DNA of 64,000 nt from Proteobacteria bacterium CG1_02_64_396 (lineage in GTDB: Bacteria > Pseudomonadota > MNWR01 > CG1-02-64-396): assembly GCA_001872725.1 (NCBI GenBank), contig MNWR01000081.1:33849-97848 (forward strand). The letters run 5' to 3'. The notes beneath the pieces are model-generated. The model saw only the letters and a list, made by a program, of their open reading frames with translations. It had not been told where the DNA came from and did no database searches. The position numbers and the translations under genes were made by a program. This document shows positions 6,488 to 64,000 of the stretch, piece after piece (position 1 is the first letter of the stretch; each line of letters begins with the position of its first letter).

Positions 6488-7909
6488 TTGTCCGCACCCG
6501 TCCGCACCCGCTTCGCCCCTTCCCCTACCGGCATGTTGCACATCGGCGGGGTCCGCACCGCGCTGTTCAATCTGCTGTTTGCCCGCCGTCACGGGGGGCA
6601 ATTCCTGTTGCGCATCGAGGATACCGACCGGGAACGCTCCACCCCCGAGGCGGTGCAGGTGATTTTGGATGGTTTGAACTGGATGGATCTCAACCCCGAC
6701 GAGGAGCCGCTGTTCCAGTCGACCCGGATTGAGCGCCATCGCGCCGCCGCCGAGGGTTTGCTGGCGGAGGGCCGGGCCTATCGCTGCTACTGCACACCCC
6801 AGGAGCTGACCGCAATGCGGGAGGCGCAGCAGGCCAAGGGGGAAAAACCTCGCTACGACGGTCGTTGTCGCCATCGCAGCGATGCCCCTCAAGGGGCCCC
6901 CTATGTGGTGCGCTTGGCCAATCCCACCGAGGGGGAGACGGTGGTCGACGATCTGGTTCAGGGGCGGGTGGTGTTCGCCAATACCGAGCTCGACGATCTG
7001 ATTCTGTTGCGCTCCGACGGTAGCCCGACCTACATGCTGGCGGTGGTGGTCGACGATGCCGATATGGGGATTACCCACGTTATTCGGGGCGACGACCACC
7101 TCAACAACACCCCCCGGCAGATGCAGATCTACCGGGCTCTTGGCCTGGAACCCCCTCAATTCGGGCATATTTCACTGATCCACGGCGCCGACGGCGCCAA
7201 GCTTTCGAAGCGTCACGGGGCGGTGGCCGCGACTCAGTACCGGCAGGAGGGGTACCTGCCCGAGGCGCTGGTCAACTATCTGGTGCGGCTGGGTTGGTCC
7301 CATGGCGATCAAGAGATCTTCTCGCGCCAAGAGTTAGAGGCGCTGTTCGATTTGGATCACGTCGGTAAATCGGCCTCCTCTTTCAATCCCGAAAAGTTGC
7401 TTTGGCTCAACGCCCACTATCTGCGTGAACGCGATCCCGAGACCCTGATTGAGCCGTTGTGGGAGCAGCTGGCCCTTTTGGGTCAGGATGTCGGGGATCG
7501 TCCCCGCGCTTGGTGGGGCGCCTTGATTCGCGAACTGCAACCCCGCAGCGAAACCCTGCGTCAGGTTGCCGAGGGGGTGCTCCCTTTCCTCGCACAGGGT
7601 ATCGAGATCGATCCGGCGGCCCAGGCCAAACATCTCAAGGGGGATGCGGCGCCGGTGCTGTCGGCGCTGATCGCGGGGCTTTCAGCCCTAACCGTGTGGG
7701 AGCGCGAGGCGATTGGCGGTGTGTTTCACGGGGTGGCCGAGCGACTGGGGGTGAAGATGGGCAAAATCGCCCAGCCGGCCCGGGTTGCGGTGACCGGTCG
7801 AACCGTCTCCCCCGGTATTTACGAAACCCTGGAGTTGATGGGGCGGCAGACGACGCTCCAACGGATGCAGGCGGCGGTCGATACAGTCACCGAAGAACAG
7901 GGGGTTTAA
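6488..7909 (+). CDS. gltX: Glutamyl-tRNA synthetase
   Basis: HIGH motif (PSPTGMLHIGGVRTALFN), KMSKS variant (KLSKRHG), length 473 aa. TTG start. Confidence 0.9.
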   Translation: MSAPVRTRFAPSPTGMLHIGGVRTALFNLLFARRHGGQFLLRIEDTDRERSTPEAVQVILDGLNWMDLNPDEEPLFQSTRIERHRAAAEGLLAEGRAYRCYCTPQELTAMREAQQAKGEKPRYDGRCRHRSDAPQGAPYVVRLANPTEGETVVDDLVQGRVVFANTELDDLILLRSDGSPTYMLAVVVDDADMGITHVIRGDDHLNNTPRQMQIYRALGLEPPQFGHISLIHGADGAKLSKRHGAVAATQYRQEGYLPEALVNYLVRLGWSHGDQEIFSRQELEALFDLDHVGKSASSFNPEKLLWLNAHYLRERDPETLIEPLWEQLALLGQDVGDRPRAWWGALIRELQPRSETLRQVAEGVLPFLAQGIEIDPAAQAKHLKGDAAPVLSALIAGLSALTVWEREAIGGVFHGVAERLGVKMGKIAQPARVAVTGRTVSPGIYETLELMGRQTTLQRMQAAVDTVTEEQGV

Positions 7910-9075: not shown

Positions 9076-10366
9076 AGACACCCCCGCGTTGCGGACTCGG
9101 ATGGCCCAGGCGATGCGCGACTGGGGCTGGAAGGTACGCTCGTACGAAAACCTAGGGGAGGCCGACTTTCGCGATAGTCCCGACGCGGTGGTCACCGACC
9201 GTTTTCTGCTCGACGGCGATGCGGTAGCGGCGATCCCCAAATGGCGGGCCAAGGGGTTTGAGGGGCCGATTGTGATGATGACCGGTCAGGCCGACATCGA
9301 GGCGGCGGTGGCGGCGATGCGGGCCGGAGCCGACGACTTCGTGGCCAAACCGGTCGCCCCCGAGGAGATCCGCCAGCGGGTCGAGAGTTTGCTGGGCGCA
9401 AGGCAGTCGGGGAGCGAGAAGCAGGAGAGCAAGAGAACTGAGGAGGGGGTCTGGGAGGCGCCGCTGGCCAAGATGGCCTATCAGCAGCTCTGCCAGTTGG
9501 CTCCACTGCCTGTTCCGGTACTGCTGCAAGGGCCGACCGGCAGCGGAAAAGAGGTCGCCTCCCGGATTTTGCACCAACGCAGCGGACGCAACGGCCCTCT
9601 GGTGGCCATCAACTGCGCCGCAATGCCCGAAGCGTTGTTGGAATCGGAGCTTTTTGGCCACCGTAAGGGGGCCTTCACCGGCGCCGAGCGCGATTCGATT
9701 GGGCTGATCGGCGAGGCGGCGGGGGGGACGCTACTGCTCGATGAGATCGGCGAGATGCCGCTGGCGCTACAAGCCAAACTGCTGCGGGTGTTGGAGGACG
9801 GTACCTACCGCCCGGTGGGTGGGGGCGGGGAGCGGCAGGCCGACGTGCGCTGGGTGCTGGCGACCCACCGAGATTTGCAAGAGGGGGCGGTTGAGGGGCG
9901 CTTCCGGCAAGATCTTTACTTTCGCATCGCCTCGTTCCCGGTGCGTCTTCCCCCCCTACGCGACCGGCTGGTCGACCTGCCCATTCTGGCCCGCCATCTG
10001 TTGCAGCAGGCGGCCCAGCGTTTTGCCCGCCCCGCCCCCCCCCTTGAGGAGGGGGTGCTGGCCGCCCTGAACCACTACGACTGGCCCGGCAATGTGCGCG
10101 AACTGCGCAACGTCATGGAGCGCTTGGTCGTCATGACCCCCCCCAACACCGCACCCGATCCCGTGATGCTGGGGATCCCCCTGCCCGATCCCCGTTCCCC
10201 CGCCATCCGGGTGGGTGGACTCAAGGCGGCCGAGCAGGAGGCGGAGCGCCAAGCGATTCAGGCGGCCCTTGATCGGGCCGGTGGCAACAAAGCCGAGGCG
10301 GCCCGAGTTCTCGGCATCGGCTACAAAACCCTCTTCAATAAGATGAAGCAGTTGGGGATGCGCTAA
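9056..10366 (+). CDS. Sigma-54-dependent response regulator (NtrC family)
   Basis: Receiver domain starting MRVLLFEDT; AAA+ sigma-54 interaction domain (VLLQGPTGSGKEVASR; ESELFGH; GAFTGA); C-terminal Fis-type HTH (AARVLGIGYKTLFNKMKQ). Start overlaps the kinase stop by 20 nt. Confidence 0.85.
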   Translation: MRVLLFEDTPALRTRMAQAMRDWGWKVRSYENLGEADFRDSPDAVVTDRFLLDGDAVAAIPKWRAKGFEGPIVMMTGQADIEAAVAAMRAGADDFVAKPVAPEEIRQRVESLLGARQSGSEKQESKRTEEGVWEAPLAKMAYQQLCQLAPLPVPVLLQGPTGSGKEVASRILHQRSGRNGPLVAINCAAMPEALLESELFGHRKGAFTGAERDSIGLIGEAAGGTLLLDEIGEMPLALQAKLLRVLEDGTYRPVGGGGERQADVRWVLATHRDLQEGAVEGRFRQDLYFRIASFPVRLPPLRDRLVDLPILARHLLQQAAQRFARPAPPLEEGVLAALNHYDWPGNVRELRNVMERLVVMTPPNTAPDPVMLGIPLPDPRSPAIRVGGLKAAEQEAERQAIQAALDRAGGNKAEAARVLGIGYKTLFNKMKQLGMR

Positions 10367-14006: not shown

Positions 14007-15179
14007 ATGAGCCAGGGTAACTTCCTCTTTACCTCCGAATCGGTTACCGAAGGCCACCCCGACAAGGTTGCCGACCGAATCTCCGATTCGATTCTGGACG
14101 CCATTCTTGCCCAAGATCCCTACGGGCGGGTCGCCTGCGAAACCCTGGTGACCACGGGTCTGGTGGTGGTGGCCGGTGAGATCACCACCAAGGCCAACAT
14201 CGATTATCCCGCCATCGCCCGCCAGGCAGTGAAGGAGATCGGCTACAACTCTTCGGCCATGGGGTTCGATTGGGAGTCGTGCGGGGTGTTGGTCACGATC
14301 GATAAACAGTCGCCCGACATTGCCCAGGGGGTGAACGAGGGGCAGGGGCTCGATCCCGACATGGGGGCGGGCGACCAGGGGTTGATGTTCGGTTATGCCA
14401 GCAACGAGACCGAAACCCTGATGCCGGCGCCGATCTATTACGCCCACCGTCTAGCCGAGCGGCAGGCGCGGGTCCGTCACGATGGCACCGTCCCCTTCTT
14501 CCGTCCCGACGCCAAAACTCAGGTCACCTTCCGCTACGAAAACCACAAGCCGGTGGCGATCGACACCATCGTCGTCTCGACCCAGCACACCCCCGAGGCG
14601 ACCCACGCCCAGGTCAAAGAGGCGGTGATGGAAGAGGTCGTCAAACCGGTGCTGGGCGAAACCGGCTTTTTGCACGCCGATACCGAGTACTACATCAACC
14701 CGACCGGGCGGTTTGTTATCGGCGGCCCCGTGGGCGACTGCGGCGTCACCGGTCGTAAGATCATCGTCGATACCTACGGCGGGTTCGGCCACCACGGCGG
14801 CGGCGCCTTCTCGGGCAAGGATCCCACCAAGGTCGACCGCTCGGCCTGCTACATGGCCCGTTATGTGGCCAAAAACATCGTCGCCGCCGGGCTGGCCGAC
14901 CGCTGCGAGGTTCAGGTCGCCTACGCCATCGGGGTCGCCAAGCCGCTGTCGGTCATGGTCAACACCTTCGGCACCGGCAAGATCGACGAAGCCCGTCTTG
15001 CTCAGATCGTGCGCGAGGAGTTCGACCTGCGTCCCAAGGGGCTGATCATGGCGCTCGATCTGCTGCGCCCGATCTACAGGCAGACCTCCTCCTATGGACA
15101 CTTCGGCCGCGAGCTGGCCGATTTCACCTGGGAAAAAACCGACCGGATCGCCTCGCTGCGCAGCCGGGCCGGACTCTGA
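14007..15179 (+). CDS. metK: S-adenosylmethionine synthetase
   Basis: [39 protein letters not shown] motifs. ATG at 14007 with GGAG 10 nt upstream; the track ORF starts 15 nt earlier. Confidence 0.9.
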
Positions 15180-15195
15180 TCCACGTTTGAGATTT

Positions 15196-15285
15196 TCCCC
15201 GGCGAGGGGCGTTGCGACGGCGGGATCTCCCGCTGCCAGGCTCGCCGGGGACCCATCCTTGTTGCAACGGCGCCCGCCAACCGAA
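15196..15285 (+). promoter_or_regulatory. Candidate SAH riboswitch in the metK-ahcY intergenic region
   Basis: Blocks GGCGAGGGGCGUUGCGAC ... CCAGGCUCGCC ... GCAACGGCGCCCGCC resemble the SAH-riboswitch consensus as recalled. Complementary pairs GGCGAG/CUCGCC and GUUGC/GCAAC, and an inner hairpin GCGGGA-UCUCCCGC. It ends just before the ahcY SD GAGGAG. Confidence 0.55.
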
Positions 15286-15297
15286 GAGGAGCATGCC

Positions 15298-16701
<1,404 letters not shown>

Positions 16702-16731
16702 GCCTAAGCCCGGTGATGATGTCGCCATTAA

Positions 16732-16761
16732 GGGCGGGTCTTCGGACCCGCCCTTTTGTTG
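16732..16761 (+). terminator. Rho-independent terminator after ahcY
   Basis: GGGCGGGTC-TTCG-GACCCGCCC stem-loop followed by TTTTGTTG. Confidence 0.75.
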
Positions 16762-16932
16762 TCGGCTGAGGGTCTGCTTCTCCGGGTTGGTAAGGTAGAT
16801 GTTGTTGTAGGGTGGATAAGCGCAGCGCATCCACCTTTTCCCTATATGGCTGCCCACCCCTGTTTTGGTGAATGCACCGTGTTGATCCACCCTATGCCAA
16901 ACCACGTTCCGCCATCTTTTTTAGGGGGTTTC

Positions 16933-18054
16933 ATGAACTGCCGCCAATTGCGCGACGACACCGTCCCCGAATCGATTCCGGCCTCCTCCCGAGCTATGGA
17001 GGTCATGCGGCAAACCGTCTCCCTGATCCACCGCCTTTCGACCCTGCCCGAATACCGCAGCGAGATTGAGCCACTGCTGCCCGAGGTGGCTCGATTCGAT
17101 CCCGGACACCACTCGGCGATGATGGGGTACGACTTCCACCTCGACGCAGACGACCCCGAGGGGGGGATGCCGACCCTGATTGAGGTCAACACCAACGCCG
17201 GCGGCATGCTCTACCTCAGCCGCTGCCTCCCCCCAGAAGGGTGGCGCGACGGACCGGTGGCGGCGATGTTCGAGCAAGAATGGGATTTATGGCGGCGGGG
17301 CCGGGGGGGGGTGTCCGGGCGTCCCGGCCTGATCGCCATCGTCGACGAGGCCCCCGAGGGGCAGTTTCTCTACCCCGAGATGCGACTGTTTCAAGCGATG
17401 TTCGAGGCGGCGGGGATTGCGACACTGATCCTGGCACCCGAGGCAATCCAAGGGGGGGCAGGGGGGCTGATCGCCCCCGACGGACGGCTTATCGACCTGA
17501 TTTACAACCGTCATACCGATTTCTATTTAGAGGAGCCGGTGATGGCGGCGATCCGGACCGCCTACCTGAATGGAGAGGTCTGCCTGACCCCAAATCCCCG
17601 AACCTATGGTTTGATCGGCGACAAGGGTCGGTTTGCTGTGTGGCGGCAAGAGGGGTTCTTGGAGGGGCTGGGCTTTACAGAGGAGGAGGGGGCGCAGCTG
17701 CGCGGGGTGATCCCCGAAACCCGATTGCTCGACGAGAGTGATCCCGAGTGGGTCTGGCAAAACCGCAACCGCTTGGTCTTCAAACCGGCGGCCCGCTTTG
17801 GCAGTCGGGGGGTCTACATGGGGCGTTCGATCTCCCGCAAAAAACTCGAAAGCCTGAGTGGTCAGAACTACTTGGCCCAACGGCTGGCCCCCCCCCACCG
17901 AGTGGCGCCTCTGAACGGGGGGGACCCCTTCAAGGCCGATGTGCGACTGGTGGCCTATCAAGACCAAGTGCTGGCGACCATGGGAAGGTTGTATCGGGGG
18001 CAGGTGACTGGATTCGGGCAGGGGGGAGGGTTCGTCTGGGTTCAGGCGTTGTAA
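16933..18054 (+). CDS. ATP-grasp superfamily ligase, glutathionylspermidine-synthetase-like (YgiC/YjfC-type) / circularly permuted ATP-grasp
   Basis: ATG at 16933 with AGGGGG upstream. Motifs DLIYNRHTDFYL, CLTPNPRTYGLIGDKGRFAVW, KPAARFGSRGVYMG, ADVRLVAYQDQVL match GSP-synthase-type ATP-grasp signatures. Family-level call only. Confidence 0.5.
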   Translation: MNCRQLRDDTVPESIPASSRAMEVMRQTVSLIHRLSTLPEYRSEIEPLLPEVARFDPGHHSAMMGYDFHLDADDPEGGMPTLIEVNTNAGGMLYLSRCLPPEGWRDGPVAAMFEQEWDLWRRGRGGVSGRPGLIAIVDEAPEGQFLYPEMRLFQAMFEAAGIATLILAPEAIQGGAGGLIAPDGRLIDLIYNRHTDFYLEEPVMAAIRTAYLNGEVCLTPNPRTYGLIGDKGRFAVWRQEGFLEGLGFTEEEGAQLRGVIPETRLLDESDPEWVWQNRNRLVFKPAARFGSRGVYMGRSISRKKLESLSGQNYLAQRLAPPHRVAPLNGGDPFKADVRLVAYQDQVLATMGRLYRGQVTGFGQGGGFVWVQAL

Positions 18055-18084
18055 CCCCCCACAGGGTGGTCCCACCCGATGGAG

Positions 18085-18270
18085 CCCGGATTTTTCATCA
18101 ATATTGTTCTGCCCTGGCTTGTTTCTCGCCTCAAGGCGCCTACTTATTGGTGTCCGCACTGGGGATTTTGCAAAAACAGTCCGTATGAACGACGACGCTC
18201 CGTTTTTGCAAAATCCCCAGTGCGAACAAGCTCCTACGCGATCATCGGGCAAATTGATGAAAAATCCGGG
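18085..18270. repeat. 186-bp nested palindromic element in a convergent intergenic region
   Basis: Outer arms CCCGGATTTTTCATCAAT (18085-18102) and ATTGATGAAAAATCCGGG (18253-18270). Inner perfect 23-bp arms CGCACTGGGGATTTTGCAAAAAC (18155-18177) and GTTTTTGCAAAATCCCCAGTGCG (18202-18224) around a 24-nt loop. Mirrored peptide fragments appear in ORFs on both strands. Confidence 0.7.
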
Positions 18271-18891
18271 TTAGATCGTGGTAATGCCGACCTCTGCGTC
18301 GGCCCTGGCGGTGACCTCGTTGAGTGCCGCCGCCACCCTGGCTTTGGCCTGCTCTTTTGAAAGCCCCCCGAGATCGACCGGATCCCCCCAAACAAAGACC
18401 CCGCGACCGAAGGGGAGCGGCAGGAAGTGACGATCCCAAGAGCGCAACTGGCGAAAGCGACTGGTGGCGAAGGCGAAGGGGACAATCGGTAACTTGTAGC
18501 GTTGGGCAATCTCGACCGCCCCCTGGGCCACGGAGCGACGTGGACCGCGAGGGCCGTCGGGGGTGATCCCGAGGGAAACCCCCTCTTGAGCCGAACGCAG
18601 CAACCCTCGAATCGCCCCGGCAGACCCCTTGCTCCCCGACCCTCTAATCGCCTCGATGCCGAAACGGTGGAAAAAGGTCGAGACGATCTCGCCATCGCGG
18701 CTGTTGCTGATGACGCAGTGGGTGGGGCGGCGCGGTGCGAAAAGGGGGAACAGGCTCAACCGCTCGTGCCAAGCGACGATGACAACCTGACCTTCGGGAG
18801 GGGCGCCGAGTATCCGCCAGCGCACGGTGTGGCGAATCAGCCAGACATACAGGGCGATTAGCCGGGCTGTGGTGCCGGGTGATAGGGTCAT
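18271..18891 (-). CDS. DUF374-family lysophospholipid acyltransferase-like protein (paralog 2)
   Basis: 206 aa. Conserved with the upstream paralog (AWHERLSL...ISNSRDGE...GSGSKGSAGAIRGLL...GITPDGPRGPRR...LPFGRGVFVWG), the family usually linked to kdtA/msbA. Confidence 0.65.
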   Translation of the reverse strand: MTLSPGTTARLIALYVWLIRHTVRWRILGAPPEGQVVIVAWHERLSLFPLFAPRRPTHCVISNSRDGEIVSTFFHRFGIEAIRGSGSKGSAGAIRGLLRSAQEGVSLGITPDGPRGPRRSVAQGAVEIAQRYKLPIVPFAFATSRFRQLRSWDRHFLPLPFGRGVFVWGDPVDLGGLSKEQAKARVAAALNEVTARADAEVGITTI

Positions 18892-18899
18892 GGAGGCGG

Positions 18900-19523
18900 C
18901 TAGATGGTGACGATGCCGACCGCCGCGTCGGCCTGGGCGGTGGTTTCGTTCAGCGCCTGGGTCACCTTGGCTTGGGCCTCCTCCTTACTCAGCCCATCCA
19001 GATCGACCGCTTCCCCCCAGACAAACACCCCGCGACCGAAGGGTAGCGGGACGAAGTGGCGATCCCACGCCTTGGTCACCTGCCTGAAACGGCTGGTGGC
19101 ATAGGCCATGGGAACCACCGGGATGTGGTATCGCATCGCCACCTCAAGGGTCCCCTGGGCCATTTGACGCCGCGGTCCGGTTGGGCCGTCGGGGGTAATA
19201 CCCAGGCTGAACCCCTCCTGGGCCGCCTTGAGCAATCCCCGGAGTGCGCTGGCGCCACCTCGGTTGCCCGATCCCCGCACCGATTCGATGCCGAAACGAC
19301 GCATAAACAGAGTAACCAGCTCCCCATCTTTATGCTGGCTGACGATGCACTGGGTGGGGCGTTTGGGGGTGAAGAAGGGCCACAGCGAAAGCCGTTCGTG
19401 CCAAGCAACGATGATGGCCTGCCCCTCGGGTGGGGTGCCGGTGACCTGCCAGCGTTGGGTCTTGAAGGACAGCCAAAGGTAGGCGGCCAGCACCGTTTCG
19501 ATCACCCTGGGATGAATCTTCAT
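18900..19523 (-). CDS. DUF374-family lysophospholipid acyltransferase-like protein (paralog 1)
   Basis: 207 aa, roughly 60-65% identical to the 18271..18891 product by eye. Start overlaps the msbA stop (ATGA). Confidence 0.65.
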   Translation of the reverse strand: MKIHPRVIETVLAAYLWLSFKTQRWQVTGTPPEGQAIIVAWHERLSLWPFFTPKRPTQCIVSQHKDGELVTLFMRRFGIESVRGSGNRGGASALRGLLKAAQEGFSLGITPDGPTGPRRQMAQGTLEVAMRYHIPVVPMAYATSRFRQVTKAWDRHFVPLPFGRGVFVWGEAVDLDGLSKEEAQAKVTQALNETTAQADAAVGIVTI

Positions 19524-54013: not shown

Positions 54014-54026
54014 CTCCCGATGGCTT

Positions 54027-54195
54027 CTAGGAGTCTGTCGGACTTGAGATTGTCCTACTGCGCCGGCGGGTAATCGGTCCAAATTTCCCCGGTTTTTCGT
54101 CACATAGCCACCACTATGATCCTCAAAACCGTGAAAATTTGGCCTCGATTCCCCACTCGGCTCGCTACGGACGCTCAAGTCCGACAGGCTCCTAG
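54027..54195. repeat. 22-bp inverted repeat (1 mismatch) flanking about 125 bp
   Basis: CTAGGAGTCTGTCGGACTTGAG (54027-54048) vs CTCAAGTCCGACAGGCTCCTAG (54174-54195). The right arm overlaps the last codons and stop of the rrf2 gene. Confidence 0.6.
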
Positions 54196-54645
54196 GGGAA
54201 AGGCCCCCAACGAGGGGGGTAGGCCGAGCAGGTGTTGGATCGAGGCCGGTTCGGTCACCACATCGGCCAGGGTGTGGCGTTCGAGCACCCCGAGGAAGGC
54301 ATTTTGGGCGTCCAGGAGTACCCCCTTGAGGGTGCAATGGTGCAGCAGGGGGCAGTGGGGTTTGGCACAATCGATGGGGTCCAAGGTGACCTCGACCTGC
54401 CGCACCACCTGCCCGATGTTGATCTCTTCCGGCGCCATCCCCAGCGCGATTCCCCCCCCTTTGCCCCGTGAGGTGTTCAGGTAGCCAAGTTTGCCCAGCT
54501 GCTGGACCACCTTGATGAGGTTGTTGCGGCTGATGTCGAAGTGTTCGGCGATCTCATTGATGGTGGTCGTCGAGCCATCGGTGGGACGCAGCGCCATGTA
54601 AATCAACACACGCAGCGCGTAGTCGGTGTATCGGGTCAATTGCAT
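54175..54645 (-). CDS. nsrR: Rrf2-family transcriptional regulator (NsrR/IscR-like, 3-Cys cluster)
   Basis: MQLTRYTDYALRVLIYMAL...INEIAEHFDISRNNLIKVVQQLGKLGYL (wHTH) and CAKPHCPLLHHC cysteine cluster. ATG at complement of 54643-54645 with GAGGAG SD. Gene symbol reflects the neighbouring globin, not proof. Confidence 0.75.
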   Translation of the reverse strand: MQLTRYTDYALRVLIYMALRPTDGSTTTINEIAEHFDISRNNLIKVVQQLGKLGYLNTSRGKGGGIALGMAPEEINIGQVVRQVEVTLDPIDCAKPHCPLLHHCTLKGVLLDAQNAFLGVLERHTLADVVTEPASIQHLLGLPPSLGAFPLGACRT

Positions 54646-59664: not shown

Positions 59665-60483
<819 letters not shown>

Positions 60484-60521
60484 AAGGGGATTCAGCCCCC
60501 TTGTGGAGATCTCTAAGGAGA

Positions 60522-60562
60522 CGCCGATTCAAAGCCTCCTGCCTTGAATCGGCGCTTTCTTA
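60522..60562 (+). terminator. Candidate terminator after the DUF2726-like gene
   Basis: GCCGATTCAA / TTGAATCGGC 10-bp stem, 11-nt loop, followed by GCTTTCTT (weak T-tract). Confidence 0.45.
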
Positions 60563-60608
60563 GAGGTTTCCTTGTTTCGAGGATGCCGACGGAAACAAAG
60601 GAGGGACG

Positions 60609-63870: not shown

Positions 63871-64000
63871 TGCCCCAACCCTCAGCGCCGATTGATGCGG
63901 CCTGTCGTAGGAGGCGACCCCGTCGCCGAAGCTCTGTTTTTGGTCTTTGCGCAGCGTCGCCGAAAAAGGCAGGAGGCCTTGAATCAGCGCTTCCCTAGGA

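Follow-up and report, generated by a model that had tools for sequence, protein, structure and literature searches.

A palindromic, MITE-like element between convergent genes of an uncultured groundwater alphaproteobacterium

A 188-bp palindromic sequence that separates two convergent genes in an uncultured groundwater alphaproteobacterium is probably a miniature inverted-repeat transposable element (MITE), present in low copy number and moved by a transposase that targets TA or CTAG. The element occupies positions 18084-18271 of the window, by which we mean the whole 64,000-nt stretch of DNA that was analysed. This reading rests on the inverted repeats and fold of the element, on sharp-ended copies of it elsewhere, on compensated changes between those copies, on their TA/CTAG flanks and on the position of a native stop codon, and from these we infer a transposition event, the kind of transposase responsible and the effects that the element may have on RNA. 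It adds a member to a class of bacterial repeats that is already well known, and the value of recognising it is mainly one of annotation, in that an eye-catching palindrome is explained as ordinary selfish DNA.

A two-tiered palindrome between two stop codons

The outer tier of the palindrome is formed by terminal inverted repeats of 18 bp, the left arm (18085-18102, + strand) reading CCCGGATTTTTCATCAAT and being the perfect complement of the right arm (18253-18270, - strand), which reads ATTGATGAAAAATCCGGG on the + strand. These repeats reach 20 bp if the G-T and A-T pairs outside them are counted, and 26 nt at 88% when extended further (18077-18102 / 18253-18278). The inner tier has a left arm of 23 bp, CGCACTGGGGATTTTGCAAAAAC, at 18155-18177 (+) and its perfect reverse complement at 18202-18224 (-), and extends to arms of 34 nt, at 88%, around a 10-nt loop (18151-18184 / 18195-18228). 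Both repeats had been called in an earlier note made from the sequence, and a repeat finder confirms each of them to the base; dinucleotide shuffles of the window are expected to contain 0.00 (inner) and 0.04 (outer) such matches by chance. The two tiers are not concentric, with spacers of 52 nt and 28 nt between them, because the element has 24 extra bases at 18127-18150 (+; CGCCTCAAGGCGCCTACTTATTGG) that appear as a gap in alignments with the two homologous copies described below, and without which both spacers are 28 nt long.

Folding bears out the two-tier hairpin proposed in the same note. RNA of either strand is predicted to form a single long branched hairpin, with a free energy of -110.9 kcal/mol on the + strand, as compared to about -67 in shuffles (z = -9.4), and of -117.5 kcal/mol on the - strand, as compared to about -72 (z = -9.5); the 24-nt segment makes a small side hairpin in the + strand fold. 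The element is 49% GC in a window that is 62% GC, and the frames that are open across it have no Pfam match at E ≤ 1. Its sequence is 99.9-100% identical in nine independently assembled contigs that span it, drawn from NCBI, ENA and JGI assemblies of groundwater samples, and it is therefore not an assembly artefact. One of the nine differs by a single base and a tenth contig breaks off within the element; the sole population variant seen within the element is a C to T change at 18157 (+) in contig L073. The locus is also present on PFQI01000100.1 of GCA_002793495.1, a MAG named 'Alphaproteobacteria bacterium CG_4_10_14_0_2_um_filter'.

The placement of the element between two convergent stop codons, also described earlier, is exact. 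Upstream, a + strand gene (16933-18054) whose homologues are named as members of a circularly permuted ATP-grasp type 2 family, and which has no Pfam match at E ≤ 0.001, ends 30 nt before the left arm. It follows metK and ahcY, and a canonical terminator identified by consensus scan (16730-16755) separates it from ahcY. Outside the same population its best homologue is only 48% identical, and two homologues whose contigs were examined (P0006 and P0004) have different neighbours and no synteny with the window. On the other side, the right arm is directly followed by the stop codon of a DUF374 gene (18271-18891, - strand), this TAA codon (18271-18273) being composed of the last base of the element and the TA that flanks it. 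The DUF374 gene is the second of a tandem pair downstream of an MsbA-like ABC transporter gene, in a unit of the order Crp-msbA-DUF374-DUF374. The two paralogues (18271-18891 and 18900-19523, both - strand) share 63% identity and align collinearly from end to end; they stem from an old tandem duplication within a neighbourhood of lipid A / envelope genes. Their C-termini are near-identical and align to the last residue (...GI[T/V]TI followed by the stop), and the paralogue ends in ATC TAG, which makes a CTAG at 18900.

Homologous elements in metagenomic contigs

Relatives of the element were found by an exhaustive search of 1.84 billion representative proteins with the frame that is open across it as the query. 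The only true matches were ORFs that run through the same element, namely the spurious local ORF P0134 and, with 57% identity across 42 residues, P0137. P0137 is carried by a 692-bp metagenome contig, L086, in which an element 78% identical in DNA sequence to that of the window is present. The homology has sharp ends, starting at AG/CCCGG and stopping at CCGGG(T/C), next to which stands TAGA; outside these limits the two sequences are not related, and neither the ATP-grasp nor the DUF374 gene of the window resembles any part of L086. A profile of the two sequences (nhmmer) matches window positions 18083-18275. Two further candidate homologues, P0135 (a large repeat protein, apparently of FG-GAP type) and P0136 (from GCA_029449255.1, an ORF that spans repetitive DNA), were rejected as chance similarities.

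The L086 element closely resembles the window element in its architecture. Its predicted fold is a symmetric hairpin (-89.4 kcal/mol, z = -10.6), and it is 53% GC between flanks of 62-68%, and has a perfect 18-bp outer repeat (CCCGGATGTTTCATGAAT / ATTCATGAAACATCCGGG) that differs from the window copy by two compensated double substitutions (alignment columns 14/185 and 21/178). Altogether 5 of 70 pairs have changed on both sides, a number reached in 4 of 500 shuffles, and controls with slid partners gave 0-1. One pair of the inner stem is C-G in the window copy, U-G in the population variant of L073 (18157) and U-A in L086. The inner stem is otherwise perfect only in the window copy, being partly kept and imperfect in L086 and broken in the third copy, L102; the perfect 23-bp stem is thus specific to the window copy and not a defining feature of the family, and could be the outcome of recent homogenisation or of local selection.

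The third copy lies on a 979-bp metagenome contig, L102, which was reached through P0138, the 90% cluster mate of P0137. L102 shares its right half and right flank almost exactly with L086, whereas its left half is diverged and the left flanks of the two are unrelated; on the left of L102 the sequence ...ATATTAG passes directly into CCCGAATG, and the copy adjoins the apparent start of a response-regulator gene. The difference between these contigs could have arisen by recombination between copies, by strain-level rearrangement at the palindrome or by chimeric assembly, and whether it reflects recombination or chimerism, at least two copies must have been present in that community. Across the window, L086 and L102 the family is seen with three left flanks and two right flanks, and it has a conserved word, CGCGATCATCGGGCAAATT, and a degenerate end, GCCCGRATKTTTCATSAAT.

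Such elements also complicate annotation and assembly. P0134, P0137 and P0138 are spurious ORF calls that they have yielded in metagenomes, and assemblies break at them, as illustrated by L086, which ends inside another repeat, and by the disagreement of L086 and L102 within the family of the window element. The other repeat is a second CTAG-bounded inverted repeat (CTAGTGTCTCAACCCATAAGTTT...) of ~170 bp, located at 524-549/665-692 in L086 and at 730-756/870-897 in L102. It is absent from the window, and L086 ends exactly there, a typical assembly break at a repeat.

Ends of the element and putative target site

In the three copies the element is flanked, apart from one degenerate site, by TA, mostly as part of CTAG or TTAG. 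L086 reads C-TA-[GCCCGG...CCGGGC]-TA-G and L102 has T-TA-[GCCCGA... at its left end and ...]-TA-G at its right end, so both have TA on both sides. The window copy reads G-GA-[GCCCGG...CCGGGT]-TA-G, with a TA at the right end (18272-18273), a putative target-site duplication within TTAG, and a GA at the left end (18082-18083), where the second TA would be expected and where the match is degenerate by one base. This left flank, G-GA and not C-TA, counts against the MITE reading, in that the duplication is imperfect despite perfect inverted repeats. Two other qualifications concern the metagenomic copies: L086 and L102 are short contigs, one of which may have been assembled as a chimera with its junction within the repeat, and since CTAG is itself palindromic, a duplication in L086 is inseparable from an extension of the terminal repeat, to which the CTAG there could belong.

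CTAG is a rare tetramer in the window, where it occurs 22 times, as compared to an expectation of 65 under a first-order model or of 220 given the base composition; 4 of the 22 sites are the ends of a second element, described below, or the stop codon of the DUF374 paralogue. The TA dinucleotide likewise occurs in the window at less than half its expected frequency. Elements of the IS630/Tc1-mariner group duplicate TA, and IS630 itself prefers a TA inside CTAG (PMC2170065); an IS5-derived MITE has a target duplication of CTAG or YTAA (PMC3189936). Targeting of either kind may apply to the window element.

The properties by which bacterial MITEs are recognised are a size from below about 200 bp to a few hundred, terminal inverted repeats with TA termini, a non-coding and A+T-rich sequence, presence at several sites and an autonomous insertion sequence with matching repeats (PMC2229807). 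The window element is 188 bp long, as bounded by its homology to L086 and L102, has perfect 18-bp terminal repeats that differ in L086 by compensated changes, contains frames without any Pfam family at E ≤ 1, and is poorer in GC than the window, at 49% as compared to 62%. TA is observed on both sides of L086 and L102 and on the right of the window copy, which has GA on the left, and dispersal is observed as the three left and two right flanks, with one copy found in ~102 kb of the source genome.

Copy number

No second copy was found in the ~102 kb of the source genome that is represented by the window and contigs L079, L080 and L083, and the sole near-match elsewhere in the window, at 9561, falls within a gene for a sigma-54 activator. 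The earlier note had proposed that its reading would be refuted by a single copy, absent from all relatives, to which no transcript end or sRNA maps; a single copy is what the ~102 kb contain, but diverged copies do exist in metagenomic contigs. Searches of larger collections added no further members. A scan of genome contigs with the 18-mer CTGGGGATTTTGCAAAAA gave 67 chance matches of single arms in unrelated taxa and none with both arms. With the 20-mer of the inner arm, metagenome contigs gave one chance match at a contig end and viral contigs none; the inner-arm negatives in the genome and metagenome collections say little, because this arm is not conserved even in L086, and the exact-word scans of the genome, metagenome and viral collections did not return the source locus itself. 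Viral contigs had no match to the terminal repeat and 14 chance matches to a conserved 16-mer, none of which was extended by nhmmer, and BLAST against plasmids with both copies as queries gave nothing meaningful. A partner transposase was sought in the annotated parts of the contig, and matching ends among plasmids and viral contigs, and neither was found.

A six-frame pseudo-protein of the element had no match at E ≤ 10 among 5.8 billion proteins, in a word-indexed search that also missed P0137, which the exhaustive search recovered. The same six-frame search returned 13 proteins for the second element of the window, which served as a positive control, and none for this one, which means that the family is either uncommon or undersampled.

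A second CTAG-bounded element in the same genome

An inverted-repeat survey of the whole window revealed another long nested palindrome (54027-54195), which belongs to an element, here called B, at 54024-54197. Element B, ~170 bp long, is flanked by CTAG at either end; its 22-bp terminal repeats (CTAGGAGTCTGTCGGACTTGAG) enclose an inner repeat, and it folds into an almost continuous 170-nt hairpin (z = -8.9). A copy at L080 7269-7487, which is 97.8% identical, inverted and carries a 47-bp extra segment, starts at window position 63993 and passes the end of the window; a third lies elsewhere in the same MAG, on contig L083 (10296-10465). The copies are 97-98% identical to one another and number at least three in ~102 kb of this genome, and a relative with similar ends is present in an unrelated genome, GCA_030145205.1 (L085, ~7149-7320). 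Each copy has the form CTAG-GAG(N)CTGTC(G/T)GAC...GTC(C/A)GACAG(N)CTC-CTAG, with the differences between their repeats compensated. Of the 13 predicted proteins that match the six-frame translation of B, one is from the same MAG. Since B is dispersed, with CTAG ends and compensated repeats, it is a true MITE family, and elements built in this way are mobile in this genome.

Element B and the window element are alike in their short length (~170 bp in B), nested repeats, CTAG flanks, long hairpins and compensated changes; they differ in that B is multi-copy and in that their sequences are unrelated, the local alignment score of 21 not being significant against 16.8 +/- 2.0 in shuffles, with a maximum of 24. 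The genome of this uncultured groundwater alphaproteobacterium thus appears to harbour two or more MITE families directed at CTAG, a tetramer that is rare in it.

A model for the insertion

We suggest that the element is a ~190-bp non-coding remnant of a DNA transposon, of which only the terminal inverted repeats and a palindromic interior have been kept. Its transposase would be supplied in trans and would bind the 18-20-bp terminal repeats, GCCCGGAT[T/G]TTTCAT[C/G]AAT, with integration at the TA inside (C/T)TAG, as is the habit of IS630/Tc1-mariner elements and, similarly, of some IS5-family MITEs (CTAG or YTAA). The ancestral distal DUF374 gene would have ended in ATC-TAG, like its paralogue, and the element would have entered the TA of that CTAG, the junction before insertion being ...CCGATGG(C)TAGATCGTGG... 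under the MITE reading. The terminal G of the element would have rebuilt TAG, and a later G-to-A change on the - strand would have turned this into TAA and left the G-T mismatch at the outermost pair. The DUF374 protein would be unchanged because the terminal base of the element restored the stop codon, which makes this a candidate example of a transposon that landed on a TAG stop codon without altering the protein. Because it lies at the 3' ends of convergent units, the element is probably transcribed from both sides as a ~190-nt hairpin, and any exonuclease block, RNase III cleavage or partial termination at the transcript 3' ends would be a by-product.

Alternative explanations

The best placed alternative, which we nevertheless regard as unlikely, is that the palindrome is a functional RNA structure maintained by selection at the convergent 3' ends, either as a bidirectional terminator that does without a T-tract or as a transcript-stabilising hairpin. 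The element does sit exactly between two stop codons, but its homologues are found in other contexts, and the copy in L102 adjoins a gene start. Compensated changes do keep the stems paired between copies, and the sole population variant, C to U, retains a G-U pair on the + strand; compensated terminal repeats, however, are equally predicted if these are transposase binding sites. The folds of both strands are very stable, and comparable roles have been described for transcripts of Neisseria MITEs (PMC2229807). As for termination, the earlier note was correct that the sequence is longer than a terminator needs to be and has no T-tract: a consensus scan gives no terminator-like site in 18055-18270 on either strand, so an intrinsic terminator, with a short GC-rich hairpin and a T/U tract, is rejected. 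The host uses ordinary intrinsic terminators, as seen from the textbook example at 16730-16755 after ahcY, and another canonical terminator is used at 60505-60571.

A related but distinctly unlikely possibility is that a MITE has been domesticated, as a bidirectional terminator or insulator of the convergent operons that lacks a T-tract, or as an RNase III processing site. The perfect 23-bp stem and the 24-nt side hairpin, both specific to this copy, could then have been selected so that the transcribed hairpin, by halting read-through or through RNase III processing, insulates the stand-alone ATP-grasp gene from the Crp-msbA-DUF374-DUF374 unit on the other strand. If the hairpin does shape transcript 3' ends, it would be an added case of a MITE co-opted as a terminator.

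It is very improbable that the element acts as DNA, as a protein-binding or cruciform site composed of nested operator-like palindromes or as a recombination site. The motif GGATTTT(G/T)CA has five matches in the window as compared to 0.24 expected, and four of them are in the element as two inverted pairs, but these four are not independent, because they are simply both arms of each repeat. Each inner arm also contains the self-complementary sequence TTTTGCAAAA, which is not conserved in L086 or L102. A gene for a Crp-family regulator is only three genes away, yet a site between two 3' ends has no promoter to regulate, and no promoter-like site was found there; nor does anything link the site to the XerC/D-like Phage_integrase gene located ~12 kb upstream.

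A local palindrome that has never been mobile, such as one produced by template-switch 'quasipalindrome' correction, with the likeness to L086 and L102 reflecting an orthologous or horizontally moved segment, would agree with the apparent single copy in this genome and with two perfect repeats beside a degenerate duplication, but we consider it highly unlikely given that the same ends meet three left and two right flanks, that the flanks of L086 and L102 have no similarity to the genes of the window, and that the ends coincide with TA/CTAG in every copy.

Several more specific identities were tried and rejected. Rfam 15 gives nothing at gathering score within the element and, at E ≤ 10, only generic animal microRNA hairpins that are far below their thresholds, so that no Rfam family is assigned; a 6S-RNA-like reading lacks an Rfam match, and the perfect 23-bp stem is unlike 6S RNA. 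By eye, a sigma-54 promoter has the wrong spacing and no GC at -12, an integron attC site is missing its inverse core at the left end, the half-sites of an FNR or CRP box are 150 bp apart, and a small ORF in the loop is without a ribosome-binding site.

Comparison with known repeat families

With these alternatives set out, the MITE reading can be compared with described systems, although in sequence the window element resembles none of the named families compared. MITEs of the IS630/Tc1-mariner type, such as RUP of Streptococcus pneumoniae and Nezha of cyanobacteria, are similarly below 200 bp and non-coding, with terminal repeats of ~18-26 bp, TA ends, a composition richer in AT than the host, an intergenic location and a long hairpin (PMC2229807). 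The window element differs from them in that the annotated stretches of the contig yielded no IS630-like partner transposase and in that its left TA is degenerate, and its apparently very low copy number contrasts with the ~100 copies of RUP. MITEPsy1 of Pseudomonas syringae, which is derived from the IS5 family, has 18-nt terminal repeats and a CTAG/YTAA target (PMC3189936), matched here by the CTAG flanks of L086 and by the TTAG flank of the window copy (CTAA on the other strand). It is only 100 nt long, with another terminal repeat sequence, and a 4-bp duplication of the IS5 type fits the window copy (GGAG versus TTAG) less well than one of 2 bp.

Correia / NEMIS elements of Neisseria are also palindromic MITEs, often co-transcribed with their neighbours, and their RNA hairpin is a proposed regulator of adjacent mRNAs by way of RNase III cleavage (PMC2229807). 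By analogy they may be the best model for a possible action of the window element at the RNA level, but they belong to another lineage, have another terminal repeat sequence and are present in hundreds of copies per genome.

REP, BIME and REPIN sequences, which are mobilised by RAYT, resemble the window element as extragenic palindromes that form hairpins at gene 3' ends and are able to stabilise mRNA. REPs measure 20-40 nt, are palindromic, number from tens to hundreds of copies and come with a linked RAYT gene. The window element, in contrast, measures ~190 bp, is bounded by true terminal repeats and by TA, and has no second copy in the window; neither a RAYT gene in the annotated parts of the contig nor a Y1 transposase among the annotated neighbours was seen, and a REP/REPIN identity is rejected. 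Where the earlier note had offered a 'MITE or REP-like' repeat, it is the MITE half that stands, on the sharp-ended homologues at unrelated loci, compensated repeats and TA/CTAG flanks; the REP-like half does not, as the copy number is not high and a short palindrome of REP type is lacking.

Other features of the region

Three other structured sequences were noted in the window. An inverted repeat of 87 bp at 16808-16894, with 28-nt arms that are 79% complementary (TAGGGTGGAT...ATCCACCCTA) and TA-bounded ends, lies 3' of the ahcY terminator (16730-16755) and 5' of the ATP-grasp gene, which starts at 16933; it may represent a 5' leader structure or another small MITE-like element, the third in the window. 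At 60505-60571 (+), just 3' of a gene that ends at 60483, a hairpin with 31-nt arms, 81% complementary, and a 5-nt loop is followed by TTGTTTCG and looks like an intrinsic terminator with an unusually long stem. Finally, a SAH riboswitch (RF01057, 59.8 bits versus a gathering score of 37) is present at 15198-15282 (+), directly 5' of the S-adenosylhomocysteine hydrolase gene and with metK just before it, which is the expected arrangement; the mechanically called ORF at 15094-16701 overruns the riboswitch, and the true start of ahcY is therefore downstream; the called gene encodes 467 aa.
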